Virus record (IMG/VR): IMGVR_UViG_2547132278_000016
From: a virus
Lineage: Duplodnaviria; Heunggongvirae; Uroviricota; Caudoviricetes
Direction: 5' to 3' (one strand)
Length of the DNA stretch: 18,636 nt
Each line of letters begins with the position of its first letter. Positions within the stretch are counted from its first letter, which is position 1. Made by a program: the position numbers and the translations under genes. The notes below the pieces were generated by a model. The model saw only the letters and a list, made by a program, of their open reading frames with translations, had not been told where the DNA came from and ran no database searches. Of this stretch, positions 1,285 to 18,636 are shown one piece after another.

Positions 1285-1319
1285 AGGTTGCTCCGGGCTA
1301 TGAAATAGAAAAATGAATC

Positions 1320-2489: not shown

Positions 2490-2685
2490 TTCTGATCCTC
2501 TTCAAAAGGCTACCTGTTACTGGTCGATTTAAGTCAACCTTTACCGCTGATTCGTGGAACAGATATTCTCTTCCATCCTTAACCGGAGGAGGGAATATCC
2601 TGCATTCGCGCACCCATCGACGAACTGTTTCAAGGCTTCTTGGGCGTCGCTGGCGAGCGTTCCACTCCTGAAGTGTCAAGTACAT
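2467..2685 (-). CDS. xis: Excisionase
   Basis: 72-aa ORF MYLTLQEWNARQRRPRSLETVRRWVRE… matching lambda Xis; overlaps the int start as in lambda. Confidence 0.9.
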   Translation of the reverse strand: MYLTLQEWNARQRRPRSLETVRRWVRECRIFPPPVKDGREYLFHESAVKVDLNRPVTGSLLKRIRNGKKAKS

Positions 2686-2724
2686 CGCAAAGTCTCCGCA
2701 ATTACACGCAAGAAAAAACCGCCA

Positions 2725-2892
2725 TCAGGCGGCTTGGTGTTCTTTCAGTTCTTCAATTCGAATATTGGTTACGTCTGCATGTGCTATCTGCGCCCACAGC
2801 ATCCAGTGGTCATAGCAGTCGCTGATGTTCTCGGCTTCGATAACTCTGTTGAATGGTTCTCCATTCCATTCACCTGTGACTCGGAAGTGCAT
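2725..2892 (-). CDS. Small hypothetical protein (55 aa) downstream of xis-side accessory region
   Basis: Hand translation of the - strand: MHFRVTGEWNGEPFNRVIEAENISDCYDHWMLWAQIAHADVTNIRIEELKEHQAA; below the 60-aa ORF-track cutoff; position corresponds to the small ORF after xis in lambda. Confidence 0.5.
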   Translation of the reverse strand: MHFRVTGEWNGEPFNRVIEAENISDCYDHWMLWAQIAHADVTNIRIEELKEHQAA

Positions 2893-2929
2893 TTATCATC
2901 TCCATAAAACAAAACCCGCCGTAGCGAGT

Positions 2930-2961
2930 TCAGATAAAAGAAATCCTCGTCAGTGCGAGGA
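2930..2961 (-). terminator. Putative intrinsic terminator (weak)
   Basis: Stem TCCTCG/CGAGGA (2944-2949 / 2956-2961) with a T-rich tract following on the - strand. Confidence 0.3.
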
Positions 2962-3134
2962 TGCTGTTCATTGCTGCTATACACTTTTTTGCTCTCAACG
3001 TAAGCGGTAGCCCATTCTGTTGGGTTGGTGCAGTTGCTTTTAGGAAATGCTATTTACCCCTTAAATGTCGGCTGAAAGAGCTAAAATCCATGCAAAAAAT
3101 TTACGCAATTTTGTGTATTATTGTGCAGTAAGTA

Positions 3135-3737
3135 ATGAGCTATTTTCTGCGCAAAAAATGGATGGTAAATTTGTCCGGGTCAGGAAAAATTTTATGGGCG
3201 CTAAACATGAAAAAAGATTCGTATCCTTATTTGATTTGCATGACAGTTTCAGGGCTGATCTTTATTTTCCTTTTCTTCTGGTGGCGGGCAGATATCTACA
3301 GGGTCACGTTTCTTAATCAGAGTATATCCCACTATTACATTCTGTTTAGCATGGGAATAGCTTTTCTGTTATCTCTGTTTTGGGTTAAGAAGGGGATAGT
3401 AAAACAAAGCGGCTGGAAGAGTCTGTCAGCATACCTTAAGGTTTATGCAGGGATGTGCATATTTGCTGGATTTTTTCTGATTATACCCCTTACGACACTA
3501 ACTTATTTTTTGCCTGGAGAGACATCGTCTTATGTTGCACCGTATCGGTATACTTCCGGTAGTTCAAAAAGTTGTTCTGGAGCTGAGGTGGATGACCCCG
3601 ATCTACATGAGAATATTCGCATTTGCTATCCGTATGGCAATTATGAGTACGATAATATTATCTATGTTGAAAAGAAAATTAATATATTAGGTGCGGTAGT
3701 GACATATGCACAGACCGCGCGTGATGATACTGAATGA
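3135..3737 (+). CDS. Hypothetical integral membrane protein (about 3 TM helices plus a ~70-aa Cys-containing C-terminal domain); accessory gene
   Basis: 200-aa ORF on the strand opposite the flanking leftward operon; hydrophobic segments LICMTVSGLIFIFLFFWW, YILFSMGIAFLLSLFWV, VYAGMCIFAGFFLIIPLTTL; AT-rich context; start uncertain (in-frame ATGs at 3135, 3162, 3207; MKKDSYPY… at 3207 looks like a typical membrane-protein N-terminus). Confidence 0.6.
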   Translation: MSYFLRKKWMVNLSGSGKILWALNMKKDSYPYLICMTVSGLIFIFLFFWWRADIYRVTFLNQSISHYYILFSMGIAFLLSLFWVKKGIVKQSGWKSLSAYLKVYAGMCIFAGFFLIIPLTTLTYFLPGETSSYVAPYRYTSGSSKSCSGAEVDDPDLHENIRICYPYGNYEYDNIIYVEKKINILGAVVTYAQTARDDTE

Positions 3738-3771
3738 TATAGTATATAGCGGGCAAGTTTTAGTTAATTTA

Positions 3772-3800
3772 TCGAGGTAATATAATTTACCTCGACTCGT
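3772..3800 (+). terminator. Putative terminator after the membrane-protein gene
   Basis: 9-bp inverted repeat TCGAGGTAA / TTACCTCGA (3772-3780 / 3787-3795) followed by a moderately T-rich stretch. Confidence 0.35.
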
Positions 3801-3947
3801 TTGTTCTGGTATTAATATTTCGCTTTACGACCGATTTTTATCTGATGATATCATGCGGTTTTCATATACTGACTTACTGTCTTTTCTCCGTTAGCGATTT
3901 TCTCCTGCTCAGCGATGATTTTATCTTTGGCTTCTAGTTAATTTCGC

Positions 3948-4169
3948 TCACTTCGAACCTCTCTGTTTACTGATAAGCTCCAGATCTTGCTGGCAACTGG
4001 CACAAGTCCGACAACCCTGAACGGCCAGTCGTCTTCGTTCATCTATCGGATCGCCACACTCACAACAATGAGTGGCAGATATAGCCTGGTGGTTCAGGCG
4101 GCGCATTTTTATTGCTGTGTTGCGCTGTAATTCTTCAATTTCTGATGCTGAATCAATTATGTCTGCCAT
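3948..4169 (-). CDS. TraR/DksA-family C4 zinc-finger protein (lambda Orf73-like)
   Basis: 73-aa ORF with CxxC…CxxC (CCECGDPIDERRRLAVQGCRTCASC), typical of TraR-like proteins. Confidence 0.75.
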   Translation of the reverse strand: MADIIDSASEIEELQRNTAIKMRRLNHQAISATHCCECGDPIDERRRLAVQGCRTCASCQQDLELISKQRGSK

Positions 4170-4220
4170 CTTTCATTAATCCCTGAATTGTTGGTTAATA
4201 CGCTTGAGGGTGAATGCGAA

Positions 4221-4246
4221 TAATAAAAAAGGAGCCTGTAGCTCCC
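4221..4246 (-). terminator. Putative weak intrinsic terminator in the leftward operon
   Basis: Stem GGAGC/GCTCC (4231-4235 / 4241-4245) followed on the - strand by TTTTTT. Confidence 0.35.
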
Positions 4247-4267
4247 TGATGATTTTGCTTTTCATGT

Positions 4268-4483
4268 TCACCGTTCCTTAAAGACGCCGTTCAACATGCC
4301 GATCGCCAGGCTTAAATGAGTCGGTGTGAATCCCATCAGCGTTACCGTTTCGCGGTGCTTCTTTAGTACGCTACGGCAAATGTCATCGACGTTTTTATCC
4401 GGAAACTGCTGTCTGGCTTTTTTGATTTCAGAATTAGCCTGACGGGCAATGCTGCGAAGGGCGTTTTCTTGCTGAGGTGTCAT
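4268..4483 (-). CDS. Hypothetical phage protein (71 aa)
   Basis: ORF in the leftward operon; start taken at internal ATG 4483 (MTPQQENALRSIARQ…), which overlaps the stop of the upstream small ORF (ATGA). Confidence 0.55.
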   Translation of the reverse strand: MTPQQENALRSIARQANSEIKKARQQFPDKNVDDICRSVLKKHRETVTLMGFTPTHLSLAIGMLNGVFKER

Positions 4484-4563
4484 TGAACAAGCCCCATGTC
4501 GGCAAGCATAAGCACACAGAATATGAAGCCCGCTGCCAGAAAAATGCATTCAGTGGTTGTCAT
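4480..4563 (-). CDS. Putative 27-aa hydrophobic peptide, translationally coupled on both sides
   Basis: Hand translation MTTTECIFLAAGFIFCVLMLADMGLVQ; its ATG overlaps the stop of the upstream ORF (ATGA) and its stop overlaps the ATG of the downstream ORF (ATGA). Confidence 0.3.
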   Translation of the reverse strand: MTTTECIFLAAGFIFCVLMLADMGLVQ

Positions 4564-4751
4564 ACCTGGTCTCTCTCATCTGCTTCTGCTTTCGCCACCA
4601 TCATTTCCAGCTTTTGTGAAAGGGATGCGGCTAACGTATGAAATTCTTCGTCTGTTTCTACTGGTATTGGCACAAACCTGACTCCAATTTGAGCGAGGCT
4701 ATGTGCCATCTCGATACTCGTTCTTAACTCAACGGGAGATGCTTTGTGCAT
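4560..4751 (-). CDS. Small hypothetical protein (63 aa), lambda orf63-like by position and size
   Basis: 63-aa [29 protein letters not shown]… in the leftward operon between exo and xis. Confidence 0.55.
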   Translation of the reverse strand: MHKASPVELRTSIEMAHSLAQIGVRFVPIPVETDEEFHTLAASLSQKLEMMVAKAEADERDQV

Positions 4752-4912
4752 ACAGCTCCCCGTTTATTATTTATCTCCTCAGCCAGCCGCTGTGCTTTCA
4801 GGGGATTTCTGATAACAGAAAGGCCGGGAAATACCCAGCCTCGCTTTGTAACGGAGTAGACGAAAGTGATCGCACCTACCCGGATATTATCGTGAGGATG
4901 CTTCATCGCCAT
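4724..4912 (-). CDS. Small hypothetical protein (62 aa), lambda orf60a-like by position
   Basis: ORF starts 7 bp upstream of the exo stop and overlaps the next ORF; compact operon organisation. Confidence 0.5.
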
Positions 4913-5583
4913 TGCTCCCCAAATACAAAACCAATTTCAGCCAGTGCCTCGTCCATTTTTTCGATGAACTCCGGCACCATCTCGTCAAAACTCGCCATGT
5001 ACTTTTCATCCCGCTCAACCACGACATAATGCAGGCCTTCACGCTTCATACGCGGGTCATAGTTGGCAAAGTACCAGGCATCTTTTCGCGTCACCCACAT
5101 GCTGTACTGCACCTGGGCCATGTAAGCCGACTTTATGGCCTCGAAACCACCGAGCCGGAACTTCATGAAATCCCGGGAGGTAAACGGGCATTTCAGCTCA
5201 AGGCCATTGCCGTCACTGCATAAACCATCGGGAGAGCAGGCGGTACGCATACTTTCGTCGCGATAGATGATCGGGGATTCAGTAACATTCACGCCGGAAG
5301 TGAATTCAAACAGAGTTCTGGCGTCGTTCTCGTACTGTTTTCCCCATGCCAGCGCCTTAGCATTAACTTCCGGAGCCACACCGGTGCAAACCTCAGCCAG
5401 CAGGGTGTGGAAGTAGGACATTTTCATGTCAGGCCACTTTTTTCCGGAGCGGGGTTTTGCTATCACATTGTGAACTTCTGAAGCGGTGATGACGCCGAGC
5501 CGTAATTTGTGCCACGCATCATCCCCCTGTTCGACAGCTCTCACGTCGATTCCGGTACGCTGCAGGATAATGTCCGGTGTCAT
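4903..5583 (-). CDS. exo: Lambda exonuclease (Red alpha)
   Basis: 226-aa translation [40 protein letters not shown]… matches remembered lambda Exo; ATGA overlap with the bet stop. Confidence 0.95.
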
Positions 5584-6365
5584 GCAGCCACCTTCTGCTC
5601 AGTGGCTTTCTGTTTCAGGAATCCAAGAGCTTTCACTGCTTCGGCCTGTGTCAGTTCTGACGATGCGCGAATGTCGCGGCGAAATATCTGGGAACAGAGC
5701 GGCAATAAGTCGTCATCCCATGTTTTATCCAGGGCAATCAGCAGAGTGTTAATCTCCTGCATGGTTTCATCGTTAACCGGAGTGATGTCGCGTTCCGGCT
5801 GACGTTCTGCAGTGTATGCGGTATTTTCGACAATGCGCTCGGCTTCATCCTTGTCATAGATACCCGCAAATCCGAAGGCGAGACGGGCACACTGAATCAT
5901 GGCTTTATGCCGTAACATCCGTTTGGGATGCGACTGCCACGGTCCGGTGATTTCTCTGCCTTCGCGGGTTTTGAATGGTTCGCGGCGGCATTCATCCATC
6001 CACTCGGTAACGCAGATCGGATGATTGCGGTCCTTGCGGTAAATCCGGCATGTGCAGGATTCATTGTCCTGCTCAAAGTCCATGCCATCAAACTGCTGGT
6101 TTTCATTGATGATACGGGACCAGCCATCAACGCCCACCACCGGAACGATGCCGTTCTGCTTGTCAGGGAAGGCGTAAATTTCTTTCGTCCACGGATTAAG
6201 GCCGTACTGGTTGGCGACGATCAGCAATGCGATGAACTGCGCATCGCTGGCATCACCTTTAAATGCCGTCTGGCGAAGAGTGGTGATCAGTTCCTGTGGG
6301 TCGACAGAATCCATGCCGACGCGTTCAGCCAGCTTCCCAGCCAGCGTTGCGAGTGCTGTACTCAT
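5580..6365 (-). CDS. bet: Bet (Red beta) single-strand annealing protein
   Basis: 261-aa translation [37 protein letters not shown]… matches lambda Bet. Confidence 0.95.
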
Positions 6366-6370
6366 CCGTT

Positions 6371-6787
6371 TTATACCTCTGAATCAATATCAACCTGGTG
6401 GTGAGCAATGGTTTCAACCATGTACCGGATGTGTTCTGCCATGCGCTCCTGAAACTCAACATCGTCATCAAACGCACGGGTAATGGCTTTTTTGCTGGCC
6501 CCGTGGCGTTGTAAATGATCGATGCAGAGTGATTCAAACAGGTGCTGGGGCAGACCTTTTTCCATGTCGTCTGCCAGTTCTGCCTCTTTCTCTTCACGGG
6601 CGATCTGCTGGTAGTGACGCGTCCAGCTCTGAGCCTCAAGACGATCCTGAATGTAATAAGCGTTCATGGCTGAACTCCTGAAATAGCTGTGAAAATATCG
6701 CCCGCGAAATGCCGGGCTGATTAGGAAAACAGGAAAGGGGGTTAGTGAATGCTTTTGCTTGATCTCAGTTTCAGTATTAATATCCAT
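6371..6787 (-). CDS. gam: Gam, RecBCD inhibitor (138-aa long form; short form would start at 6667)
   Basis: Translation contains [98 protein letters not shown], matching lambda Gam. Confidence 0.9.
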
Positions 6788-6885
6788 TTTTTATAAGCGT
6801 CGACGGCCTCACGAAACATCTTTTCATCGCCAATAAAAGTGGCGATAGTGAATTTAGTCTGGATAGCCATAAGTGTTTGATCCAT
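6742..6885 (-). CDS. kil: Kil (host-killing / FtsZ-inhibiting small protein)
   Basis: 47-aa [50 protein letters not shown], the C-terminal part of the longer 89-aa track ORF; overlaps gam and cIII as in lambda. Confidence 0.8.
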
Positions 6886-7018
6886 TTTTTGGGACTCCTG
6901 GCTGATTAAGTATGTCGATAAGGCGTTTCCATCCGTCACGTAATTTACGGGTGATTCGTTCAAGTAAAGATTCGGAAGGGCAGCCAGCAACAGGCCACCC
7001 TGCAATGGCATATTGCAT
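6854..7018 (-). CDS. cIII: CIII (FtsH inhibitor stabilising CII)
   Basis: Hand translation of the - strand from ATG at 7018: [54 protein letters not shown] (54 aa); below the ORF-track cutoff. Confidence 0.85.
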   Translation of the reverse strand: MQYAIAGWPVAGCPSESLLERITRKLRDGWKRLIDILNQPGVPKNGSNTYGYPD

Positions 7019-7090
7019 GGTGTGCTCCTTATTTATACATAACGAAAAACGCCTCGAGTGAAGCGTTATTGGTATGCGGTAACGCCGCGC

Positions 7091-7459
7091 TCAGGCGGCT
7101 TTGATAGTCATATCATCTGAATCAAATATTCCTGATGTATCGATATCGGTAATTCTTATTCCTTCGCTACCATCCATTGGAGGCCATCCTTCCTGACCAT
7201 TTCCATCATTCCAGTCGAACTCACACACAACACCATATGCATTTAAGTCGCTTGAAATTGCTATAAGCAGAGCATGTTGCGCCAGCATGATTAATACAGC
7301 ATTTAATACAGAGCCGTGTTTATTGAGTCGGTATTCAGAGTCTGACCAGAAATTATTAATCTGGTGAAGTTTTTCCTCTGTCATTACGTCATGGTCGATT
7401 TCAATTTCTATTGATGCTTTCCAGTCGTAATCAATGATATATTTTTTGATGTTTGACAT
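7091..7459 (-). CDS. ea10: Ea10-like protein
   Basis: 122-aa ORF MSNIKKYIIDYDWKASIEIEIDHDVMTEEKLHQINNFW… matching remembered lambda Ea10. Confidence 0.8.
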   Translation of the reverse strand: MSNIKKYIIDYDWKASIEIEIDHDVMTEEKLHQINNFWSDSEYRLNKHGSVLNAVLIMLAQHALLIAISSDLNAYGVVCEFDWNDGNGQEGWPPMDGSEGIRITDIDTSGIFDSDDMTIKAA

Positions 7460-7477
7460 CTATTCATATCCTCACAG

Positions 7478-7505
7478 ATAAAAAATCGCCCTCACATTGG
7501 AGGGC
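7478..7505 (-). terminator. Intrinsic terminator in the leftward (pL) operon upstream of ea10
   Basis: Stem GCCCTC/GAGGGC (7488-7493 / 7500-7505) followed on the - strand by ATTTTTTAT. Confidence 0.45.
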
Positions 7506-7719
7506 AAAGAAGATTTCCAATAATCAGAACAAGTCGGCTCCTGTTTAGTTACGAGCGACATTGCTCAGTGTATTCACTCGTTGGAATGAATACACAGTGC
7601 AGTGTTTATTAGTATGCCTGTCTTTTAACCACATCAGGCTCGGTGGTTCTCGTGTACCCCTACAGCGAGAAATCGGATAAACTCTATTCACCCCTACAGA
7701 GAGCAAAAGAGAAACGCCG

Positions 7720-8301
7720 ATGAACAACTCATGGTGGCAGGAACTAATGCATTTTTTCCTGCAAGGAATGACACTTAAACAGTTGATTCATATGCTAATC
7801 ATCCTGATCATATTGATTATTGTTATGCCTGTAAGCGTAAAAGAATGGATAAACCTGCATAATCCAGAAATCCTTCCTCATTACTGGATGTATTACATCC
7901 TGTTGTTTTGCGTTAGCTATGTGCTTAACGGCGTTGTTAATTCCGCTTATCACGCTGTGACTGAAAGAATTGAGATATTCGCTGCTCAGAAGCGCAAATC
8001 TAAAGAAGAGAAATACGTGCAAGATTTGTTTGATTCGTTAACTCTTGGAGAAAGAGCGTATTTGGCATTCGCTGTAGCCGCTAATAACCAGCTAAAGACA
8101 GAAAAGGGAAGCCCTGAAGCAATCTCATTGCTCGAAAAAGGGCTTCTTATTCGGGTACCTTCTGCTACTGGATATCCTGAAATCGACCGTTTTGTTATCC
8201 CGGAACGCTATAGAAATGAGTGCTACATTAGGTTTGCTGGGAAGAAAGACAGTCTTATGGATGAACTTATCGCTCAGGATAAGCATGGCAAAAACAAGTA
8301 A
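7720..8301 (+). CDS. sieB: Superinfection exclusion protein B
   Basis: 193-aa membrane protein MNNSWWQELMHFFLQGMTLKQLIHMLIILIILIIVMPVSV… matching lambda SieB; converges on the N-like gene. Confidence 0.85.
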   Translation: MNNSWWQELMHFFLQGMTLKQLIHMLIILIILIIVMPVSVKEWINLHNPEILPHYWMYYILLFCVSYVLNGVVNSAYHAVTERIEIFAAQKRKSKEEKYVQDLFDSLTLGERAYLAFAVAANNQLKTEKGSPEAISLLEKGLLIRVPSATGYPEIDRFVIPERYRNECYIRFAGKKDSLMDELIAQDKHGKNK

Positions 8302-8317
8302 TTAGCAAATTAATTTA

Positions 8318-8590
8318 TCATCTCGCCGTCAGTTGTTTTGATTTCCGGTAGCCTGCCGCGTAAATGGCTACGTTTGGCAGGCAAATACTTCCACTGCATT
8401 CATCTGCCTTCTTGCAGCGAAGGCTTCCGAGTGATGCTGCTTTGTCTGCTCTGACGCAACCAGAGAGCTTTAGCGCAATTTTTCGCGCCAGTCGCTGTTC
8501 TTGCATTGCCTGCTCACGTTGAGCCTGTCTGCGTGCTCTGCGGCGATTTCTGGCGTTATTGTCAGCCAGATATGTAATGACTACTGCCAT
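8318..8590 (-). CDS. N-like transcription antiterminator (P22 gp24 type)
   Basis: 90-aa ORF with arginine-rich motif NARNRRRARRQAQRE near the N-terminus and a C-terminus (…LPNVAIYAAGYRKSKQLTAR) resembling P22 gp24; GGAGG 6 nt upstream of the ATG; placed downstream of pL/nutL. Confidence 0.65.
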   Translation of the reverse strand: MAVVITYLADNNARNRRRARRQAQREQAMQEQRLARKIALKLSGCVRADKAASLGSLRCKKADECSGSICLPNVAIYAAGYRKSKQLTAR

Positions 8591-8698
8591 GTTGACCTCC
8601 GATGATTAACTTTGGCGGTGACGCGCCGGGTGCTTATCTTCCGGTTGCCGTCGTGCAGCTGCACTTCACGTCACCCCAAAGCCAACTACTCTTTGGTT

Positions 8699-8738
8699 CC
8701 CGCATTTCGGCGGGACAATCCCATCAATGTTAAAGAGC
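8699..8738 (-). promoter_or_regulatory. nutL: nutL: boxA (GCTCTTTAACA) and boxB hairpin (CCCGCCGAAATGCGGG) in transcript sense
   Basis: BoxA-like sequence followed by a 5-bp-stem hairpin that is identical to the one downstream of cro. Confidence 0.6.
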
Positions 8739-8770
8739 CTGCCAATCTGTTCCGTTTGGCTACCAGCGTC

Positions 8771-8862
8771 CTGCCGATGACTTAAATTTAAGATTTCTTT
8801 AACTATTGGTCAAGAGTGTTTTTGAAGAAAACTTAAATTTTGTTGCGAAGCTTAAGTTTTGC
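8771..8862 (-). promoter_or_regulatory. OL operators and pL promoter (TTGACC-17 nt-TAAATT on the - strand, about 8775-8803)
   Basis: Palindromic CTTAAATTTAAG and ACTTAAA…CTTAAGT operator-like repeats resembling those at OR; good -35/-10 match reading leftward toward nutL and N. Confidence 0.55.
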
Positions 8863-8880
8863 TTTGATTTTTAAAGGAAA

Positions 8881-8902
8881 GAAAAAAAGGGGCGAATGCC
8901 CC
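8881..8902 (-). terminator. Intrinsic terminator immediately after the repressor gene
   Basis: GGGGCATTCGCCCC hairpin followed by TTTTTTTC on the - strand, directly after the c2 stop codon. Confidence 0.7.
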
Positions 8903-9553
8903 TTATGGAAGGTTTGCTATTTTTGCATCGACAACTACACCGATGATTTTGCAGTTCCCGTTGATCTCAATCATCGGATATTGTGGGTTAAGTGGTTTTA
9001 GAAACCTTCTGCCAGCATCAATAACTAACTTCTTGAAAGTTGCCTCGTTTTCTCCTTCGAGCTTTGCCACTACCAGCTTCCCATTACGAGGTTCTACTTC
9101 AGGATCGACTAGTATTATCATCCCTTCCGGGATGCTAAGACCGGCTGGAGCCGTCATCGAATCACCCTTTACGTCCAGCCAAAACGAATCTTCTGAACAA
9201 TCTACGGTTGTATCGTACCAGTTATCTATTGCACGCTTATGATATGGCTCTACAGCTTCCATCCAACATCCTGCGCTTACCCAACTAATTAGAGGATACG
9301 AACCTCTTGGATCATGCCTGCTGTGATAGGCAATGTTTGAAAGACTATCTTCTCCTTTCAACAAGTAATCAGGGGAGCACTGTAAAGCCTTGGCTAAAGC
9401 CAATAGGTTTTCGCCATTGGGCTCAGTTTCAGAACGCTCCCATTGGGAAATAGCAACATTAGACACGCCAACCATCTTGCCGAGGGCAGCCTGCCTAATC
9501 TTAAGTTCTTTTCTGCGAGCGCGAATACGCTCACCCATCAGTTGTGTATTCAT
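8903..9553 (-). CDS. c2: Prophage repressor, P22 C2 type (LexA-like HTH plus S24 peptidase domain)
   Basis: 216-aa translation MNTQLMGERIRARRKELKIRQAALGKMVGVSNVAISQWERSETEPNGENLLALAKALQCSPDYLLKG… near-identical to remembered P22 C2. Confidence 0.95.
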   Translation of the reverse strand: MNTQLMGERIRARRKELKIRQAALGKMVGVSNVAISQWERSETEPNGENLLALAKALQCSPDYLLKGEDSLSNIAYHSRHDPRGSYPLISWVSAGCWMEAVEPYHKRAIDNWYDTTVDCSEDSFWLDVKGDSMTAPAGLSIPEGMIILVDPEVEPRNGKLVVAKLEGENEATFKKLVIDAGRRFLKPLNPQYPMIEINGNCKIIGVVVDAKIANLP

Positions 9554-9554
9554 A

Positions 9555-9630
9555 GTTAAGACATCTTAAATAAACTTGACTTAAGATTCCTTTGATAGAT
9601 AATTTAAGTGTTCTTTAATTTCGGGGCGAG
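9555..9630. promoter_or_regulatory. OR operator region with divergent pR and pRM promoters
   Basis: Three operator-like palindromic elements (AGTTAAGACATCTTAAAT, ACTTGACTTAAGAT, TAATTTAAGTGTTCTTTAATT) between divergent c2 and cro; TTGACT and GATAAT hexamers reading toward cro. Confidence 0.6.
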
Positions 9631-9633
9631 TCT

Positions 9634-9819
9634 ATGTACAAGAAAGATGTTATCGACCACTTCGGAACCCAGCGTGCGGTAGCTAAAGCGTTAGGCATTA
9701 GCGATGCAGCAGTCTCTCAGTGGAAGGAAGTCATCCCAGAGAAAGACGCCTATCGACTGGAAGTCGTTACAGCTGGCGCCCTGAAGTATCAAGAAAGTGC
9801 TTATCGCAAAGCGGCATAA
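9634..9819 (+). CDS. cro: Cro, P22 type
   Basis: 61-aa translation MYKKDVIDHFGTQRAVAKALGISDAAVSQWKEVIPEKDAYRLEVVTAGALKYQESAYRKAA matches remembered P22 Cro. Confidence 0.9.
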   Translation: MYKKDVIDHFGTQRAVAKALGISDAAVSQWKEVIPEKDAYRLEVVTAGALKYQESAYRKAA

Positions 9820-9824
9820 GCAAA

Positions 9825-9868
9825 TTGCTCTTTAACAGTCATGGTCCTTATTCCCGCCGAAATGCGGG
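9825..9868 (+). promoter_or_regulatory. nutR: nutR: boxA (TGCTCTTTAACA) and boxB hairpin CCCGCCGAAATGCGGG
   Basis: Same boxA/boxB pair as nutL, directly downstream of cro. Confidence 0.6.
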
Positions 9869-9927
9869 AATACAACGCGCATCAGTTGGTGCGTATAACT
9901 TCTTATTTGTTAAGGAAATACTTACAT

Positions 9928-10206
9928 ATGCAACTTACAAGTACTCGCAAGAAAGCGAATGCAATCACAAGCAACATCCTGAATCGAATTGCTGTACGTG
10001 GTCAGCGAAAGGTTGCTGATGCATTAGGGATTAATGAATCGCAAATTTCGCGATGGAAAGACAGCTTTATCCCAAAGATGGCCATGCTTCTGGCTGTGCT
10101 GGAGTGGGGTGTTGAAGACGAGGAATTAGCAAAGCTAGCAAAGAAAGTAGCCATGGTGCTGACAAAAGAAAAGCCTCAAGACTGCTGCAACAGTTTTGAG
10201 GCCTGA
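9928..10206 (+). CDS. c1: CII-like transcriptional activator (P22 C1 type)
   Basis: Start at ATG 9928 with AAGGA upstream (MQLTSTRKKANAITSNILNRIAVRGQRKVADALGINESQISRWK…); HTH and the LLAVLEWGV motif shared with lambda CII; the track ORF from 9841 is an upstream extension. Confidence 0.8.
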   Translation: MQLTSTRKKANAITSNILNRIAVRGQRKVADALGINESQISRWKDSFIPKMAMLLAVLEWGVEDEELAKLAKKVAMVLTKEKPQDCCNSFEA

Positions 10207-10240
10207 TGTAGAAAGACTGGATCAATCCACAGGAGTCATT

Positions 10241-11140
10241 ATGACAAATACAGCAAAAATACTCAACTTCGGCAGAGGTAACTTTGCCGGACAGGAGCGT
10301 AATGTGGCAGATCTCGATGATGGTTACGCCAGACTATCAAATATGCTGCTTGAGGCTTATTCAGGCGCAGATCTGACCAAGCGACAGTTTAAAGTGCTGC
10401 TTGCCATTCTGCGTAAAACCTATGGGTGGAATAAACCAATGGACAGAATCACCGATTCTCAACTTAGCGAGATTACAAAGTTACCTGTCAAACGGTGCAA
10501 TGAAGCCAAGTTAGAACTCGTCAGAATGAATATTATCAAGCAGCAAGGCGGCATGTTTGGACCAAATAAAAACATCTCAGAATGGTGTATCCCTCAAAAC
10601 GAGGGAAAATCCCCTAAAACGAGGGATAAAACATCCCTCAAATTGGGGGATTGCTATCCCTCAAAACAGGGGGACACAAAAGACACTATTACAAAAGAAA
10701 AAAGAAAAGATTATTCGTCCGAGAATTCTGGCGAATCCTCTGACCAGCCAGAAAACGATCTTTCTGTGGTTAAACCGGATGCTGCAATTCAGAGCGGCAG
10801 TAAGTGGGGAACAGCAGAAGACCTGACCGCCGCAGAGTGGATGTTTGACATGGTGAAGACCATCGCGCCATCAGCCAGAAAACCGAATTTTGCTGGGTGG
10901 GCTAACGATATCCGCCTGATGCGTGAACGTGACGGACGTAACCACCGCGATATGTGTGTGCTTTTCCGCTGGGCCTGCCAGGACAACTTCTGGTCCGGTA
11001 ACGTGCTGAGTCCGGCCAAACTCCGCGACAAGTGGACCCAGCTCGAAATCAACCGTAACAAGCAACAGGCTGGCGTGACAGCCGGAAAACCAAAACTCGA
11101 CCTGACAAACACTGACTGGATTTACGGGGTGGATCTATGA
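10241..11140 (+). CDS. O: Replication initiator O (lambda type)
   Basis: Translation from ATG 10241 (AGGAGT upstream) MTNTAKILNFGRGNFAGQERNVADLDDGYARLSNMLLEAY… matches lambda O; contains the ori iterons. Confidence 0.95.
   Translation: MTNTAKILNFGRGNFAGQERNVADLDDGYARLSNMLLEAYSGADLTKRQFKVLLAILRKTYGWNKPMDRITDSQLSEITKLPVKRCNEAKLELVRMNIIKQQGGMFGPNKNISEWCIPQNEGKSPKTRDKTSLKLGDCYPSKQGDTKDTITKEKRKDYSSENSGESSDQPENDLSVVKPDAAIQSGSKWGTAEDLTAAEWMFDMVKTIAPSARKPNFAGWANDIRLMRERDGRNHRDMCVLFRWACQDNFWSGNVLSPAKLRDKWTQLEINRNKQQAGVTAGKPKLDLTNTDWIYGVDL
10589..10720. repeat. ori: ori-lambda: four ~19-bp iterons (O-binding sites) followed by an AT-rich unwinding region
   Basis: Direct repeats ATCCCTCAAAACGAGGGAA / AATCCCCTAAAACGAGGGATAA / CATCCCTCAAATTGGGGGA / TATCCCTCAAAACAGGGGGA, then AAAGACACTATTACAAAAGAAAAAAGAAAAGATTATTCG. 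Confidence 0.85.
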
Positions 11141-11838
11141 AAAACATCGCCGCACAGATGGTTAACTTTGACCGTGAGCAGATGCGTCGGATCGCCAACA
11201 ACATGCCGGAACAGTACGACGAAAAGCCACAGGTACAGCAGGTAGCGCAGATCATCAACGGTGTGTTCAGCCAGTTACTGGCAACTTTCCCGGCGAGTCT
11301 GGCTAACCGTGACCAGAACGAACTGAACGAAATCCGCCGCCAGTGGGTTCTGGCTTTCCGGGAAAACGGGATCACCACAATGGAACAGGTTAACGCAGGA
11401 ATGCGCGTAGCCCGTCGGCAGAACCGACCATTCCTGCCATCACCCGGGCAGTTTGTTGCATGGTGCCGGGAAGAAGCATCCGTTATCGCCGGACTGCCAA
11501 ACGTCAGCGAGCTGGTTGATATGGTTTACGAGTATTGCCGGAAGCGAGGCCTGTATCCGGATGCGGAGTCTTATCCGTGGAAATCAAACGCGCACTACTG
11601 GCTGGTTACCAACCTGTATCAGAACATGCGGGCCAATGCGCTTACTGATGCGGAATTACGCCGTAAGGCCGCAGATGAGCTTGTCCATATGACTGCGAGA
11701 ATTAACCGTGGTGAGGCGATCCCTGAACCAGTAAAACAACTTCCTGTCATGGGCGGTAGACCTCTAAATCGTGCACAGGCTCTGGCGAAGATCGCAGAAA
11801 TTAAAGCTAAGTTCGGACTGAAAGGAGCAAGTGTATGA
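11137..11838 (+). CDS. P: Replication protein P (DnaB helicase loader)
   Basis: 233-aa translation MKNIAAQMVNFDREQMRRIANNMPEQYDEKPQVQQVAQIINGVF… matches lambda P; ATGA overlap with the O stop. Confidence 0.95.
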   Translation: MKNIAAQMVNFDREQMRRIANNMPEQYDEKPQVQQVAQIINGVFSQLLATFPASLANRDQNELNEIRRQWVLAFRENGITTMEQVNAGMRVARRQNRPFLPSPGQFVAWCREEASVIAGLPNVSELVDMVYEYCRKRGLYPDAESYPWKSNAHYWLVTNLYQNMRANALTDAELRRKAADELVHMTARINRGEAIPEPVKQLPVMGGRPLNRAQALAKIAEIKAKFGLKGASV

Positions 11839-12008
11839 TGGGCAAAGAGGCAATTATTCATTACCTGGGGACGCACAAGAGCTTCTGTGCGCCGGACGTT
11901 GCTGCGACAACAGGTGTGACATTAACCAGCATAAATCAGGCTGCGGCAAAAATGGCGCGGGCAGGAATCCTGGTCATTGATGGTAAGGTCTGGCGAACGT
12001 TTGTTTAA
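11835..12008 (+). CDS. ren: Ren-like protein, C-terminally truncated (57 aa)
   Basis: Hand translation MMGKEAIIHYLGTHKSFCAPDVAATTGVTLTSINQAAAKMARAGILVIDGKVWRTFV* resembles the N-terminal half of lambda Ren (~96 aa); similarity ends near 12000. Confidence 0.6.
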   Translation: MMGKEAIIHYLGTHKSFCAPDVAATTGVTLTSINQAAAKMARAGILVIDGKVWRTFV

Positions 12009-12154
12009 CGGTTAGCTACTCAGGATGATAGGGCGGGGCAAGTGAGTATGAAGCGGATTTTCAGGAATGCCATCAGAGTTTGGAAATAAAGTGGGTTTTC
12101 TAGTGGCAAGAGACTTGATAATATTTAGTTCTTTGAATCCAAGGAGATAGGGTT

Positions 12155-12650
12155 ATGAGAAAATTTATTTTAGCCTTTGTTATAAGTGCCTCGTTTACAG
12201 CAAATGCTGGTGTAGAGAAGTTAGGGCCGTGGATAACAAAGTCTGAGATAAATAAAATGACTGACCAGACTGACTTTGTGGCCCTTAATTTATCACCAGA
12301 TTCATATAACAAAGCAGGTACTGATCGTGCAACTTCACTGGTGTTGCGTTGTAGTGATAACAAAACAGATGCCTATTTATCATTCAATGATTATATGGGT
12401 TCGGACAACCCAAGAATTACAGTGCGGTTAGATGGGCGGAAAGCCGGTCAAGAGTGTTTGGGGAGGTGGGGAAGGCGGTGATTCTGCATTTGCTCCACAA
12501 CCAATACAATTTATAAAGACCTTGGCTAAGCATAAAAAAGCTATTTTTGGGTTTGAACCTTATGGATCAACTATGCAAGTAGTTGAGTTTGACTTGTCTG
12601 AGATTGATAAGGTTGTGGAAAAAATTTCACAGTCTTGCAATTGGAAATGA
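12155..12650 (+). pseudogene. Secreted/periplasmic hypothetical protein gene split by an apparent frameshift (ORFs 12155-12481 and 12432-12650)
   Basis: AAGGAGA RBS then ATG 12155; signal peptide MRKFILAFVISASFTANA; reading frame ends in a G-rich stretch (GGGGAGGTGGGGAAGGCGG) while an overlapping frame continues to 12650. Confidence 0.5.
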
Positions 12651-12667
12651 CAAAAAAATTTCATATG

Positions 12668-12695
12668 AACCCAGTTTGCGCTGGGTTTTTTATTT
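12668..12695 (+). terminator. Intrinsic terminator
   Basis: Stem AACCCAG/CTGGGTT (loop TTTGCG) followed by TTTTTTATTT, about 20 bp after the stop at 12650. Confidence 0.6.
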
Positions 12696-13279
12696 CAGTA
12701 GCCAATAATGCATTCAAAATCTCTTACTTGAGAAACGGCCTATTTGAGATTTCAGTCGTGGCAGGATGATCAGTTGATTCGAGTATTGACGCATTTGCGT
12801 TCGGAGCGATTACAGTAGATTGTAAATAATAATGAGAAACACATAGCCACCCCGTGGTATTGAAACCATATAATGTTGGATTTGAAAACAGATCTTTTCC
12901 CATGTATTAATAACTACATCCCCGCGAGTGATTCAAAAAGGAGGGCCCAATTTTGTCCGAGTTTTTGTATTCCCCCGCATGCCGCTGCGGAGCACTACAT
13001 CTGAGTGTCTGACTAGGGGATAAAATTAGACTGGATAGTGAGAAGAAAGTGGCGCGCTAGGCTGTGCCGAGTGCTACCAGTACACCTTGGGGGTGTGCAG
13101 CTTTCGCCGAGACTGTAGTGGGTATCGGTTAATGCACGAAAAACCGAGAGGTCAGACAACCAATTTGCCGTAGGATTGTTTCCGGTGCGATACCGGTCTA
13201 CTAACTGAAAGCAATGCGAAAAAGCATAAACTCGGTCCTTCAGTCGCCCTACACACTATTTACTAAGAAGGGCTGAAGC

Positions 13280-13479
13280 ATGGATACAATTATTACATGG
13301 ATGGGAGATCGTCTGTTGGGGGGACACAAAAATCCGATCTGCGGCAGATGGCGATCACTGGATTAACTTCCGCGATTTGTTCAACAATTTTGTACACTGA
13401 AAAATTAAAACATGGTGAGCCTATTAACCCAAACGAAGAAGAAAAACTTTATAGGCTTTGGTATGAAGGAAACGCTTGA
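13280..13479 (+). CDS. Small hypothetical ORF with a G6 tract separating the RBS-linked start frame from the long frame (possible pseudogene or frameshift-prone gene)
   Basis: AGAAGGG then ATG at 13280 (MDTIITWMGDRLLGG…, stops after 28 codons); track ORF 13297-13479 is in another frame; the two frames meet at GGGGGG 13318-13323. Confidence 0.3.
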
Positions 13480-13685
13480 AAGAATAAAGCACAATTAAAA
13501 CCTTTGATTTGCGATAATCAACTTGCCATAATTAAGTAATCGGAGTCTGAACAACTCCGGTGACTTCTGCGCTAAACGGGGACGTTTATGCGCACATACA
13601 ATCCAAACTATCTTCTCCTTTCACAGATGCAGAAATGCACCTGCAATTCTTTGCATCTAGCGTTTGACCTCTGCGGAGGTGAAGC

Positions 13686-14141
13686 GTGAACCTCCCACAA
13701 GACGGCATCAAATTACATCGCGGCAACTTCACCGCTATCGGCCAGCAGATCCAGCCTTATCTGGAGGAAGGCAAATGCTTTCGCATGGTGCTTAAACCGT
13801 GGTGCGAGAGACGCAGTCTTTCCCAGAATGCACTCAGCCACATGTGGTACAGCGAAATCAGTGAATACCTCATCAGCAGGGGTAAAACGTTCGCCACTCC
13901 AGCTTGGGTAAAAGATGCTCTCAAACACACATATCTCGGTTATGAAACCAAAGACCTGGTTGATGTCGTAACCGGTGATATCACCACTATCCAGTCGTTA
14001 CGCCATACCTCCGATCTTGATACCGGAGAGATGTATGTCTTCCTGTGTAAGGTTGAAGCCTGGGCGATGAATATTGGTTGCCACCTGACTATTCCACAGA
14101 GCTGCGAGTTCCAGCTGCTGCGCGACAAGCAGGAGGCGTAA
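13686..14141 (+). CDS. ybcN: YbcN-like protein (151 aa), nin-region gene as in DLP12
   Basis: 151-aa ORF, GTG start with GGAGGTG upstream; sequence and size match remembered E. coli YbcN. Confidence 0.8.
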
Positions 14142-14311
14142 TGGCTACACCGCTTATTCGTGTCATGAACGGACACATCTACAGAGTACCAAATCGTCGT
14201 AAGCGTAAACCTGAGCTGAAGCCATCCGAAATACCAACACTGCTCGGATATACCGCCAGCCTGGTTGATAAAAAATGGTTGCGACTGGCAGCAAGGAGGA
14301 GTCATGGCTGA
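14141..14311 (+). CDS. ninE: NinE-like protein (56 aa)
   Basis: [65 protein letters not shown]; start overlaps the ybcN stop (TAATG). Confidence 0.8.
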   Translation: MATPLIRVMNGHIYRVPNRRKRKPELKPSEIPTLLGYTASLVDKKWLRLAARRSHG

Positions 14312-14594
14312 TTTGAGAAAAGCAGCGCGTGGTCGGGAATGCCAGGTAAGAATCCCTGGCGTATGTAATGGCAACCCTGAAACGTCTGTACTGGCACATA
14401 TCCGGCTGACTGGATTGTGCGGCACCGGTACGAAACCGCCAGACCTGATTGCCACCATTGCATGTTCTGCCTGCCACGACGAAATCGACCGCCGCACTCA
14501 TTTTGTCGATGCTGCATATGCAAAAGAATGCGCGCTGGAAGGTATGGCGAGAACACAGGTTATCTGGCTGAAAGAGGGGGTTATTAAGGCGTGA
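14304..14594 (+). CDS. ybcO: YbcO-like protein (DUF1364, Cys-rich putative nuclease)
   Basis: 96-aa ORF from ATG 14304 with AGGAGG upstream ([40 protein letters not shown]…CSACHDEID…). Confidence 0.8.
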
Positions 14595-14953
14595 ATACCT
14601 ACAGCATCACATTACCCTGGCCTCCGAGCAATAATCGCTATTACCGCCATAATCGCGGGCGCACGCACGTCAGCGCAGAGGGGCAGGCATACCGCGATAA
14701 CGTCGCCCGAATCATTAAAAACGCAATGCTGGATATCGGCCTGGCTATGCCTGTGAAAATCCGCATTGAGTGCCACATGCCGGATCGCCGTCGCCGTGAC
14801 CTGGATAATCTGCAAAAAGCCGCTTTTGACGCACTCACTAAAGCAGGTTTCTGGCTGGATGATGCTCAGGTCGTTGATTACCGCGTTGTGAAGATGCCTG
14901 TTACCAAAGGTGGGAGGCTGGAACTGACCATCACCGAAATGGGGAATGAATGA
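14591..14953 (+). CDS. rusA: RusA Holliday junction resolvase
   Basis: 120-aa translation [48 protein letters not shown]… matches remembered RusA; GTG start. Confidence 0.9.
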
Positions 14954-15090
14954 TGTTTGAGTTTTATATGGCAGAACGTCTTCGCCACCGCTGGGGGCGT
15001 CTGCGCTTATATCGTTTCCCCGGTTCTGTTTTGACCGATTACCGAATACTGAAGAATTACGCCAAAACCCTGACAGGAGCAGGAGTATGA
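14950..15090 (+). CDS. ylcG: YlcG-like small protein (46 aa)
   Basis: Hand translation [46 protein letters not shown]; overlaps the rusA stop; below the track cutoff. Confidence 0.5.
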
Positions 15091-15175
15091 AGTCAGAGAT
15101 AACAATCAACTAATACTGTTTTGTTGATTTTTGCTTGTAATTGGCGTTCTGGTCTGATTTTTGTGGAGTAAGTTG

Positions 15176-15559
15176 ATGCGTGATATTCAGATGGTTCTTG
15201 AGCGTTGGGGAGCGTGGGCGGCTAATAATCATGAAGATGTGACCTGGTCGTCCATTGCCGCCGGTTTTAAGGGATTAATTACTTCAAAAGTAAAATCTCG
15301 CCCGCAATGTTGTGACGATGACGCGATGATCATTTGCGGGTGCATGGCCCGTCTGAAAAAGAACAACAGCGATTTGCACGATTTATTAGTAGATTATTAT
15401 GTAGTCGGTATGACATTCATGTCACTGGCAGGTAAGCATTGCTGCTCTGATGGTTATATCGGGAAAAGGTTACAGAAGGCTGAGGGCATAATTGAAGGGA
15501 TGTTAATGGCATTAGATATCCGGTTAGAGATGGATATCGTTGTTAATAACTCTAATTAA
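15176..15559 (+). CDS. quuD: Late-gene antiterminator Q (DLP12 QuuD-like)
   Basis: 127 aa from ATG 15176 with GGAGTAAG upstream ([26 protein letters not shown]…); sits between the nin block and the lysis genes. Confidence 0.8.
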
Positions 15560-15591
15560 TACGCCAATTATTTACTAAAAGTTATTAAAAA

Positions 15592-15732
15592 TGGGGCGTT
15601 GAAACGCCCCCAAAAATAAAGGGTAATATATAACAGAAGGTTTGTATAGTTAGAAGCAAGGTTGTGCTTCTAAAGGAAGTGGCTTGAGGGAGCCACTTAT
15701 ATGTTGGGGAGGCAAAGCCTCCCACAACATAT
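15592..15732. terminator. Cluster of four stem-loops between convergent Q and porin genes (probable terminators)
   Basis: GGGGCGTT-gaa-AACGCCCC (15592-15610); AGAAGCA…TGCTTCT; GTGGCT-tgaggg-AGCCAC; ~15-bp stem ATATGTTGGGGAGGC-aaa-GCCTCCCACAACATAT (15699-15732). Confidence 0.4.
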
Positions 15733-15747
15733 CTTTTAGTAATCAAA

Positions 15748-16830
15748 TTAGAACTGGTAAACCATACCTACAGCAACGATATCATCGGTAGCAACGCCAG
15801 ATGCTTTCGTGAAATCGCTCTTATCAATCAGGTTGATTTTGTAGTCAACAAAAGTGGACATATTTTTGTTGAAGTAATAGGTTGCACCTACATCAACATA
15901 TTCAACCAGGTCCTGATCACCCCAAACACCCAAGTCTTTTCCTTTAGAATGCAGGTAAGCAACGGATGGACGCAGGCCGAAGTCGAACTGATATTGTGCA
16001 ACAGCTTCGAAGTTTTGTGCTTTGTTGGCAATATGGTTATTACCAAAAACAGTCATGTTCTGGGTTTCAGAATAGGTGGTAGCCAGATAGATGTTGTTCG
16101 CATCATATTTCAGACCAGCTGCCCATACTTCAGCATTTTGACCAGATGCATTCAGGCTGTTGTTACCGTAGATAACCTGATTATTAGTGCGGTCAGATTT
16201 AGCATAGGTTGCACCTACACCGAATCCTTCATACTCATAAGTAGTGGAGAAACCGAAACCATCACCATTAGCTTCAGTTACGTCAGTGCGGTCATTTTTA
16301 CCCTGATACTGAGCAGCAAAGTTCAGACCATCAACCAGACCAAAGAAGTCATTGTTACGATAAGTTGCAACACCTGTGGTGCGACCAGTCATGAATACAT
16401 CTGTTTGGGTCCAGGTATCGCCACCGAATTCTGGCAGAACGTCGGTCCATGCACCAATATCGTATGCTACACCGTAGTTACGGCCATAATCGATGGAGCC
16501 GTAGTCACCGAATTTCAGGCCAGCGAAGGCAAGACGGGTTTTATCTTTGGAGGAACCTTGAGATTCAGCGCGGTTGCCTTTGAATTCATATTCCCACTGA
16601 CCGAAACCAGTCAGTTGATCGTTGATTTGGGTTTCACCTTTGAAGCCAAGACGGGCATAAGTAGTATCACCATCATCTGCATCATTAGAGGAGAAGTAGT
16701 GCTTAGCATTAACTTTCCCGTACAGATCCAGCTTGTTACTGTCTTTATTATAAATTTCAGCTGCCTGAGCAGACATCGCCATCAGTACTGATGCAGCTAC
16801 AGCAGAAATTGCCACTGTTAATTTTTTCAT
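15748..16830 (-). CDS. nmpC: OmpC/OmpF-family general porin (NmpC / Lc type), apparently intact
   Basis: 360 aa from ATG 16830: signal peptide [23 protein letters not shown], porin-like beta-strand periodicity, C-terminal …VGMVYQF; matches remembered NmpC; the track ORF adds a 20-aa upstream extension. Confidence 0.9.
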
Positions 16831-17256
16831 CGTGAGCCCTTTTTTTGAACTATTATTAAAAAATGATGTCACTGCGCGATAAATATTCATCTAATCAATG
16901 TGATTATTTCAAGATGTAAGTTTTGGTTTCTCATTTGATTTGTGAAGTAGATCTCTATTTTTATCTGAACTTTTTCTATCGAATCCTATTCATGGCTCTT
17001 GGCTGAATAAAAATAAATCTATTAGCCAATTTATATTAATGGCTGTTATTTATAAGTGCTCTATAATTTGAAGATTCAATTTAAACCAGCTAAAAATAAC
17101 GCTGGAAATTATTTGTTGGTTATTTGTTGAGATTTGCTTATGTATTTGTAGTGGTGTTTTCAATACTCGGTAGCATTCTCGCAAATATCATTTAGTGGTT
17201 TACGTACGTAAAAAATTGGTTATGCTGTTAAGAGTGGTTACTTCGTCACACAGCTT

Positions 17257-17289
17257 AAACCCGCCGTCGAGCGGGTTTTTCCATTTTTT
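17257..17289 (+). terminator. Intrinsic terminator upstream of the lysis genes (tR'-like)
   Basis: AAACCCGC-cgtcga-GCGGGTTT followed by TTCCATTTTTT, ~130 bp before the holin start, with no + strand gene upstream. Confidence 0.6.
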
Positions 17290-17417
17290 GAGTCTCGATA
17301 TTAGCTGATAACCCAATACCTGAGTTATTCACTGACTCCGAGTCTGTTACGTTTCTGCTTTTTTGCGATACGTTGTATTCCCTCAATTTACACCCGCTTT
17401 GTCTGCGAGGTGGGGTT

Positions 17418-17633
17418 ATGAAATCCATGGATAAGTTAACAACGGGTGTCGCCTATGGCACCTCAGCAGGTAGTGCCGGTTACTGGTTTTTACAGCTGCT
17501 CGATAAAGTCACGCCCTCACAGTGGGCAGCAATAGGTGTGCTGGGTAGCCTGGTATTTGGCCTGCTGACGTACCTGACAAACCTTTATTTCAAGATTAAA
17601 GAAGATAAGCGCAAGGCTGCGAGAGGTGAATAA
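17418..17633 (+). CDS. S: Class II holin (phage 21 S-type pinholin) with dual-start motif
   Basis: [71 protein letters not shown]; Met1-Lys-Ser-Met4 gives 71- and 68-aa products; GAGGTGGGG upstream. Confidence 0.85.
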
Positions 17634-18126
17634 TGCCTCCATCATTACGAAAAGCCGTTGCTGCTGCTATTGGTGGCGGAGCAATTGCTATAGCATCAGT
17701 GTTAATTACTGGCCCAAGTGGTAACGATGGTCTGGAAGGTGTCAGCTACATACCATACAAAGATATTGTTGGTGTATGGACTGTATGTCACGGGCATACA
17801 GGAAAAGACATCATGCTCGGTAAAACGTATACCAAAGCAGAATGCAAAGCCCTCCTGAATAAAGACCTTGCCACGGTCGCCAGACAAATTAACCCGTACA
17901 TCAAAGTCGATATACCGGAAACAATGCGCGGCGCTCTTTACTCATTCGTTTACAACGTGGGTGCTGGCAATTTCAGAACATCGACGCTTCTTCGCAAAAT
18001 AAACCAGGGCGATATCAAAGGCGCATGTGATCAGCTACGTCGCTGGACATATGCTGGCGGTAAGCAATGGAAAGGTCTCATGACTCGTCGTGAGATTGAG
18101 CGTGAAATCTGTTTGTGGGGTCAGCA

Positions 18127-18130
<4 letters not shown>
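17633..18130 (+). CDS. R: SAR endolysin (T4-lysozyme-like muramidase with N-terminal signal-anchor-release domain)
   Basis: 165 aa; Gly/Ala-rich weak TM segment [20 protein letters not shown], then E…D…T-containing region ([22 protein letters not shown]); start overlaps the holin stop (TAATG). Confidence 0.85.

Positions 18131-18636
<506 letters not shown>

Follow-up and report, generated by a model that had tools for sequence, protein, structure and literature searches.

A lambda-like prophage carries an intact NmpC/Lc-class porin gene between Q and its lysis genes, upstream of an inferred late promoter

Phage-borne porins of the NmpC/Lc clade have been known since the 1970s–80s, and a further example carries little weight as a discovery. 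The classical porin expressed by lysogens is reportedly Lc of phage PA-2, known through the work of Schnaitman in 1975 and Blasband in 1986; Schnaitman and co-workers are also said to have found that Lc synthesis depresses OmpC, the receptor of PA-2, and leads to exclusion. In Salmonella, OmpD is encoded by a chromosomal gene that is not known to belong to a prophage. The Q-porin-S layout is common to DLP12, 434B, PA-2, and Perceval, and many phage records name this porin gene OmpD. The DLP12 copy of Escherichia coli K-12 (nmpC, b0553 in MG1655) is listed as a pseudogene in two pieces with IS5B between them, and phage 434B, which picked up the region from K-12, carries the same IS5 there. Unlike K-12, EAEC 042 has an apparently functional nmpC/ompD (PMC2808357). 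Earlier publications already cover the porin family, where its gene is located, its disruption by IS5 in K-12, and its interpretation as a moron, and the exact protein described below is in RefSeq; our only additions are a corrected start, the placement relative to a pR' homologue, loop-focused allelic differences, and prevalence counts.

We analyzed a stretch of 18,636 nt (the window; IMG/VR virus record IMGVR_UViG_2547132278_000016). It carries a lambda-like prophage at att-lambda, which is not DLP12. The host gene ybhC occupies positions 1–1284, the lambda att core GCTTTTTTATACTAA lies beside it at 1331–1345, and the phage genes follow in the order int, xis, exo/bet/gam, cIII, N, cI, cro, cII, O, P, nin region, rusA, and Q. 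The porin gene, an S21-type holin gene, and a lysozyme gene are found 3' of Q, and the tail genes lie beyond the end of the window. Positions 1–18229 are 99.995% identical to ETEC strain 120899 (NZ_CP025916), and the identical locus in ETEC genomes carries the same annotation of Q, holin, and lysozyme around the porin. An initial annotation, made from the sequence alone, had located the porin between Q and the lysis genes and opposite in strand to late transcription. The flanking genes confirm this position, with Q, S, and R all on the plus strand and the porin on the minus strand. The genes concerned are the following:

15176–15559, plus strand: Q late-gene antiterminator of the QuuD/Q933W type (Pfam Phage_antitermQ, E = 4e-53; quuD in the identical RefSeq locus)
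15748–16830, minus strand: porin coding sequence, 360 aa plus stop codon, NmpC/Lc/OmpD class
16762–16830, minus strand: signal peptide of the porin, 23 codons followed by AEIYNK, its 69 nt 100% identical to the sig_peptide of J02580.1
17418–17633, plus strand: S21-type holin with a dual start (M-K-S-M) (Pfam Phage_holin_2_1, E = 3.5e-35; annotated essD)
17633–18130, plus strand: endolysin, a lysozyme of the RrrD type (Pfam Phage_lysozyme, E = 1.3e-45; annotated rrrD)
18127–18229, plus strand: Rz spanin, truncated after ~34 codons by IS100 (the NZ_CP025916 match stops at 18229)

The phage 434B homologue of the holin is annotated as an antiholin/holin pair. At the junction between 18229 and 18230, Rz runs into the left end of IS100 (TGTCACGAACGG...). 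In NZ_CP025916, otherwise identical, IS100 lies 590 bp further right and Rz is intact. The window prophage therefore carries either a deletion next to IS100 or an independent insertion, and it is probably unable to complete lysis. Because Rz is truncated by IS100, the prophage looks defective, and lysogenic conversion may be a fossil here.

Elsewhere in the window, the Rfam model Lambda_thermo (the cIII thermoregulator RNA) matches at 6973–7031 on the minus strand over its full length with 88.5 bits, and a lambda-type cIII leader is therefore confirmed. Between xis and the recombination genes, a 200-aa ORF at 3135–3737 (plus strand, opposite to that of the pL operon) has no Pfam match, and its C-terminal 88 residues alone match phrog_1416; it is a candidate second moron. 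For the ren gene (11835–12103), the annotation of the near-identical RefSeq locus notes a frameshift and an internal stop, and a 57-aa ORF (11835–12008) is all that remains of it in the window. At 12155–12650, a 164-aa VasI/TagO-like gene (Pfam VasI, E = 5e-6) is split into ORFs of 108 and 72 aa by an extra G at 12434–12436 (GGG vs. GG in NZ_CP025916), reflecting either a frameshift pseudogene or a homopolymer sequencing error. The ~940 bp that follow (12651–13587) are without annotated gene in the RefSeq relative. They include a 60-aa ORF (13297–13479, plus strand) that matches phrog_8527 (E = 2e-44) and is probably a small conserved phage gene left unannotated.

The porin frame contains no frameshift and no internal stop, and the complete, uninterrupted 360-aa porin proposed in the initial annotation is thereby borne out. 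Its extent required a correction. The coordinates first given, 15748–16890, are right at 15748, whereas 16890 is the ATG of the maximal ORF in the six-frame list (16890 to 15748 on the minus strand, 380 aa counted from the first ATG) and adds 60 bases at the 5' end. As read from the sequence, the true start is the ATG at 16830 (MKKLTVAIS...), which has an AAGGG Shine-Dalgarno-like motif 6 nt upstream. The same start is used by RefSeq for the 100%-identical gene WP_000737273.1 ("porin OmpC"), and the lc record of phage PA-2, J02580.1, also begins the gene there and marks a signal peptide of 23 aa. A wrong start, 20 codons longer, is present in many database entries.

The match of this protein to the porins is far beyond chance. 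Pfam Porin_1 (PF00267) aligns over profile positions 1–337 of 337 (E = 1e-152; 508.9 bits vs. a cutoff of 23.7), and 48 different porins of solved structure can be aligned with it over their whole mature length, through the C-terminal Phe (E = 1e-136 to 1e-107), their mature residue 1 corresponding to residue 24 of the window porin. This full-length match and the identity of the 23-aa signal peptide to that of PA-2 lc uphold the earlier description of an OmpC-family porin with a signal peptide. The LPEFGGD motif of the L3 constriction is formed by residues 132–138, the protein ends with YQF, and P133, G136, G137, and F360 are invariant across 37 homologues. The AlphaFold2 (AF2) model shows 16 main strands; its confidence is moderate (pLDDT 72.7), which makes the loop boundaries approximate. 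Foldseek comparison of the model with OmpC (2xe3 and 2j1n) and OmpK36 gave TM scores of 0.86–0.90 and rmsd values of 2.1–2.5. We predict that the protein is exported by Sec and forms a general-diffusion porin of 16 strands, in which L3 constricts the channel as usual and the chain ends in Phe.

The gene might be taken for host chromosomal ompC, or for a paralogue of it, and not for phage cargo. RefSeq indeed names it ompC, and the protein passes the NCBIfam OmpC cutoff (515 vs. 484 bits), although this is a subfamily and not an equivalog model; it scores below both the PhoE and the OmpF equivalog cutoffs of NCBIfam. The likelihood of a host gene is negligible, and the genomic context has already refuted it: the porin lies between Q and S of a prophage that has a lambda att core and int. 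Its identity to solved OmpC structures is 61–64%, against 91% to Lc and NmpC. It also has a full-length match to phrog_410, and the porin is encoded in 42 phage records, among them PA-2, Perceval, P7, and several lambdoids of the ev and PhiR series. What RefSeq calls "porin OmpC" is a prophage NmpC/Lc porin.

An antisense 280-aa ORF within the porin coding sequence (15949–16791, plus strand) was discarded as a mechanical ORF without homology support, likely a by-product of porin codon composition. We also rejected a control by MicC like that of Salmonella ompD. The best duplex between the porin mRNA and the 5' end of MicC, taken in a sequence that agrees with E. coli genomes and with the K-12 annotation, has −17.1 kcal/mol at +15 to +36 and is equalled by 54 of 500 shuffles. 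The ompD-type site (codons 23–26) shows extra mismatches in the window porin and is not convincingly conserved.

The disruption of K-12 DLP12 nmpC by an IS element, stated in the initial annotation, could be read at the junctions: IS5B follows codon 346, and the target sequence CTAA is duplicated. Removal of IS5 in silico restores a 365-aa K-12 NmpC, which shares 331 identities with the window porin over 365 alignment columns (91%) and is identical to Lc at 361 of 365 positions. At the DNA level, the nin-Q segment of the window (13503–15786) is 98.3% identical to DLP12, and the porin-to-lysis segment (from 15806) 92.7%. The 98.3% identical part takes in Q, the nin region before it, and ~13 codons at the 3' end of the porin gene, and the mosaic junction where identity to K-12 DLP12 changes coincides with the K-12 IS5 insertion site.

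An intact porin is the norm and K-12 the exception. Of 5426 complete genomes of E. coli, 2352 cover at least 80% of the 2.7-kb Q-porin-S segment. A 201-nt probe across the K-12 IS5 site is contiguous in at least 1651 of the 5426 and only partially matched in ~300, K-12 derivatives included. An intact porin gene is present in about one third of these genomes or in a larger share, and the 90%-identity protein cluster of the window allele has 2741 members.

The expression of the porin gene would depend on the following elements around it and on their arrangement:

16831–17198, minus strand: AT-rich porin leader and regulatory region (27–30% GC), expected by homology to hold the nmpC/lc promoter
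16938–16958, minus strand: putative proximal CRP-site homologue, identical to misc_binding 1363–1383 of J02580.1 (TGTGA-N6-TCTCT)
17199–17226, plus strand: inferred late promoter pR', with −35 TTTACG at 17199–17204, a 16-nt spacer, and −10 TATGCT at 17221–17226
17230–17288, plus strand: homologue of the qut/pause region with the first terminator, from a terminator scan and alignment to the 933W qut/terminator
15583–15610, minus strand: intrinsic-terminator-like hairpin and T-run, GGGGCGTTTCAACGCCCC then ATTTTTAATA, that would end the porin transcript
15651–15732, minus strand: three tandem stable hairpins of the porin 3' untranslated region, from RNA folding

The porin-holin intergenic region is 98% identical to the upstream regions of K-12 nmpC and PA-2 lc and 96% identical to that of Perceval. 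In K-12, deletion of −199 to −1 abolishes the activity of the nmpC promoter, which also drives the transposase of the nested IS5 (PMC11677980). Perceval nmpC is transcribed in an LF82 lysogen at a level 10-fold above the median of that prophage's genes (PMC9928086), and the nmpC genes of CFT073 are strongly induced at 37 °C at both the RNA and the protein level (PMC12890032). By eye, candidates for a −35 box of the porin gene, such as TTGAAA at 16912–16907, have poor −10 partners, and we therefore claim no −10 and −35 elements.

The porin gene may alternatively be intact and yet transcriptionally silent, a passenger without current phenotype. H-NS, for example, could silence the very AT-rich upstream region, with 27% GC in part of 16831–17198, and a scan for sigma-70 consensus promoters found no site in the region upstream of the porin, the only two sites being both inside Q. 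We nevertheless consider silence quite unlikely, given that both K-12 (PMC11677980) and the LF82 lysogen of Perceval (PMC9928086) transcribe nmpC from upstream DNA 96–98% identical to that of the window. The frame, the signal peptide, the L3 motif, and the C-terminal Phe are moreover all kept, and intact copies number in the thousands (2741 in the protein cluster), which argues for purifying selection.

A search for distant DNA homologues with the porin-holin intergenic region as query retrieved more than 300 Stx-phage records matching the window at 17198–17280. The records of 933W and VT1-Sakai assign the matching segment, directly after Q, to pR', qut, and the first terminator. The −10 box of the window pR' is followed by a conserved AAGAGTGGTTAC start/qut region and then by a tR'-like hairpin, AAACCCGCCGTCGAGCGGGTTT, with a T-run at 17257–17288. 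This homologue is unique in the window, with 0 expected by chance, and the site at 17199 is 100% conserved in phage Perceval; the assignment relies on a DNA similarity of 77–78%, and the records of 933W and VT1-Sakai call these features putative. The predicted short pR' RNA (17233–17300) has no unusual structure beyond the terminator hairpin (z = −1.1). In the porin flanks, no tRNA genes were found and Rfam gave no match at the gathering threshold, the tR' hairpin giving only a sub-threshold Trp_leader match (E = 0.4). In the 1986 PA-2 lc record, a distal "CRP binding site" is annotated that maps to 17233–17253, within the pR' initial transcribed/qut region. It contains one perfect TGTGA half-site only, which 933W lacks. 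The site may instead serve as a qut/pause element; alternatively, CRP could interfere there with escape from the late promoter.

Window Q is 78% identical to the Q of phage 933W over residues 1–126, and DNA homology to 933W stops near 15540, in the last few codons of window Q. In 933W, the homologous Q abuts pR' without a porin. The end of homology near 15540 together with the pR' homologue at 17199 suggests that, relative to the 933W layout, a cassette of ~1.66 kb (roughly 15540–17198) containing the porin is interposed between Q and pR'. A remnant of the 933W-type Q 3' end was sought at 17150–17198, where there is weak similarity only, with in-frame stop codons, and this candidate is unsupported. 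Most likely, the porin is located upstream of the inferred pR' and outside the late operon, and late transcripts would not cross it. Lying between Q and pR', it would be expressible in a lysogen independently of the lytic programme and of prophage induction.

A different layout would place the porin inside the late unit. With pR' right after Q, as in lambda, 82, and 933W, antisense late transcription would silence the porin during lytic growth. In most characterized lambdoid phages pR' does directly follow Q (933W annotation), and a weak TTGAAA...TAATAT pair can be read from the sequence at 15599–15629. This candidate, however, has a 19-nt spacer and overlaps the terminator hairpin, and the sole 933W-type pR'/qut/terminator homologue of the window, at 17199–17288, is on the S side of the porin. 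Window Q, being 78% identical to Q933W, should use such a 933W-type site, and in the DLP12 literature the lysis-cassette regulatory region is cloned from nmpC-essD intergenic DNA. We regard a porin within the late unit as very unlikely.

The primers used for that DLP12 regulatory region ("−121 to +650"; PMC7918800) map to window position 16758 and to the holin gene. This mapping would put the "+1" of the DLP12 literature near 16879, between the porin start and S. Such a start at ~16879 on the plus strand would be separated by no more than 49 nt from the ATG of the porin, which is on the other strand. A sigma-E-like GAACTA-N16-TCACT can be read just upstream of it (~16848–16879). A long leader beginning at ~16879 would need to pass through pR' and its terminator to reach the holin gene.

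At the 3' end of the porin gene, RNA folding of 15570–15760 on the minus strand gave −67.5 kcal/mol (z = −9.5 vs. 200 shuffles), and the hairpin at 15583–15610 is present in the minimum-free-energy fold of the 3' untranslated region. The hairpins at 15651–15732 are perfect and are located between the porin stop codon and the terminator, in the zone where Q and the porin gene converge. They might act as an mRNA stabilizer or as a barrier to convergent transcription from Q. N-antiterminated early transcription proceeding past Q could converge on the porin 3' end during lytic growth.

We consider it very likely that the window encodes a functional general porin of the NmpC/Lc type, made from its own promoter in the lysogen, that forms trimers in the outer membrane and alters permeability and receptor display. 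An intact classical NmpC/Lc allele of the OmpD clade would thus form a self-contained 1.66-kb cassette, read from a promoter in 16831–17198, as judged by homology to K-12 nmpC and PA-2 lc, and ending at its own terminator at 15583–15610. By the same homology, catabolite state and temperature are likely to modulate this promoter. With the cassette between Q and a Q-responsive pR', the carrier strain would express the porin in the lysogen outside the lytic programme. After export by Sec, the protein would trimerize in the outer membrane, where it would add to or replace OmpC/OmpF and change permeability and the set of phage and colicin receptors. Independence from prophage induction would bear on how such prophages are judged to change antibiotic permeability, phage susceptibility, and heat resistance in pathogens, such as the ETEC lineage that carries this locus.

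The locus also has the characters of a moron: a terminator of its own, a GC content of 27–43% vs. ~50% in the flanking genes, and a counterpart in 933W where the Q-pR' junction is without porin. The moron's own promoter is suggested by homology to the active K-12 PnmpC only. A moron with a role in lysogenic conversion, as first proposed, fits the closest relatives, PA-2 lc (91%) and the transcribed Perceval nmpC (94.7%).

The window porin differs in sequence from NmpC and from Lc at 30 of its own positions each, in addition to two deletions: compared with the 365 aa of Lc, its 360 aa lack three residues in predicted loop L4 and two in L5. Relative to NmpC, 23 of the 30 positions fall in the predicted extracellular loops L3–L8 (Fisher P = 7e-7), and relative to Lc, 21 of 30 fall in predicted loops (P = 3e-5). 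The loop differences are mainly in L4, L5, L6, and L8, within loop limits taken from the moderate-confidence model. Such a loop-focused pattern is usual for surface-exposed porin loops and would be compatible with receptor or antigen diversification. A more far-reaching proposal is that the loop-remodelled allele is a receptor or antigenic variant under diversifying selection and that porin and lysis are, in addition, coupled through their shared control region. The shared 370-bp AT-rich region could link the porin composition of the outer membrane with the readiness of the lysis/vesiculation cassette. Promoters back-to-back with that of the porin, namely, the 933W-like pR' at 17199 and the reported sigma-E-dependent start near 16879, could provide this link, and catabolite state or envelope stress could be the signals. 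Taken as a whole, this joint proposal is unlikely.

Aligned as the initial annotation had suggested, the window porin is 91% identical to NmpC, 91% to Lc, and ~80% to OmpD. DLP12 has the same gene in the same Q-porin-S-R arrangement; its nmpC is a split pseudogene, whereas the window copy is intact, and DLP12 resides at argU, whereas the window prophage is at att-lambda with a lambda-type int/xis. PA-2 Lc (protein 2 of J02580.1) has the same position and orientation beside the lysis genes. Its signal peptide is identical, and the 590 bp upstream are 98% identical, including the proximal annotated CRP site; the two porins share 331 identities over 365 alignment columns. NmpC of the LF82 prophage Perceval is closer to the window porin, with 94.7% identity. 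Salmonella enterica OmpD belongs to the same clade and has a similar length of 360–362 aa.

More distantly, OmpC, OmpF, and PhoE of E. coli and OmpK36 and OmpK37 of Klebsiella share with the window porin the family, the 16-strand barrel (TM 0.85–0.90), the PEFGG motif of L3, and the C-terminal Phe. Their identity to it is only 57–64%, and the window gene, in contrast, is prophage-borne. The stx and tRNA morons of 933W and VT1-Sakai are likewise cargo in the Q-to-S interval, and the Stx phages have in common with the window a homologous Q (78%) and a homologous pR'/qut/terminator block. However, stx is downstream of pR', on the late strand, and Q-dependent, whereas the window porin is upstream of pR', on the opposite strand, and apparently Q-independent.
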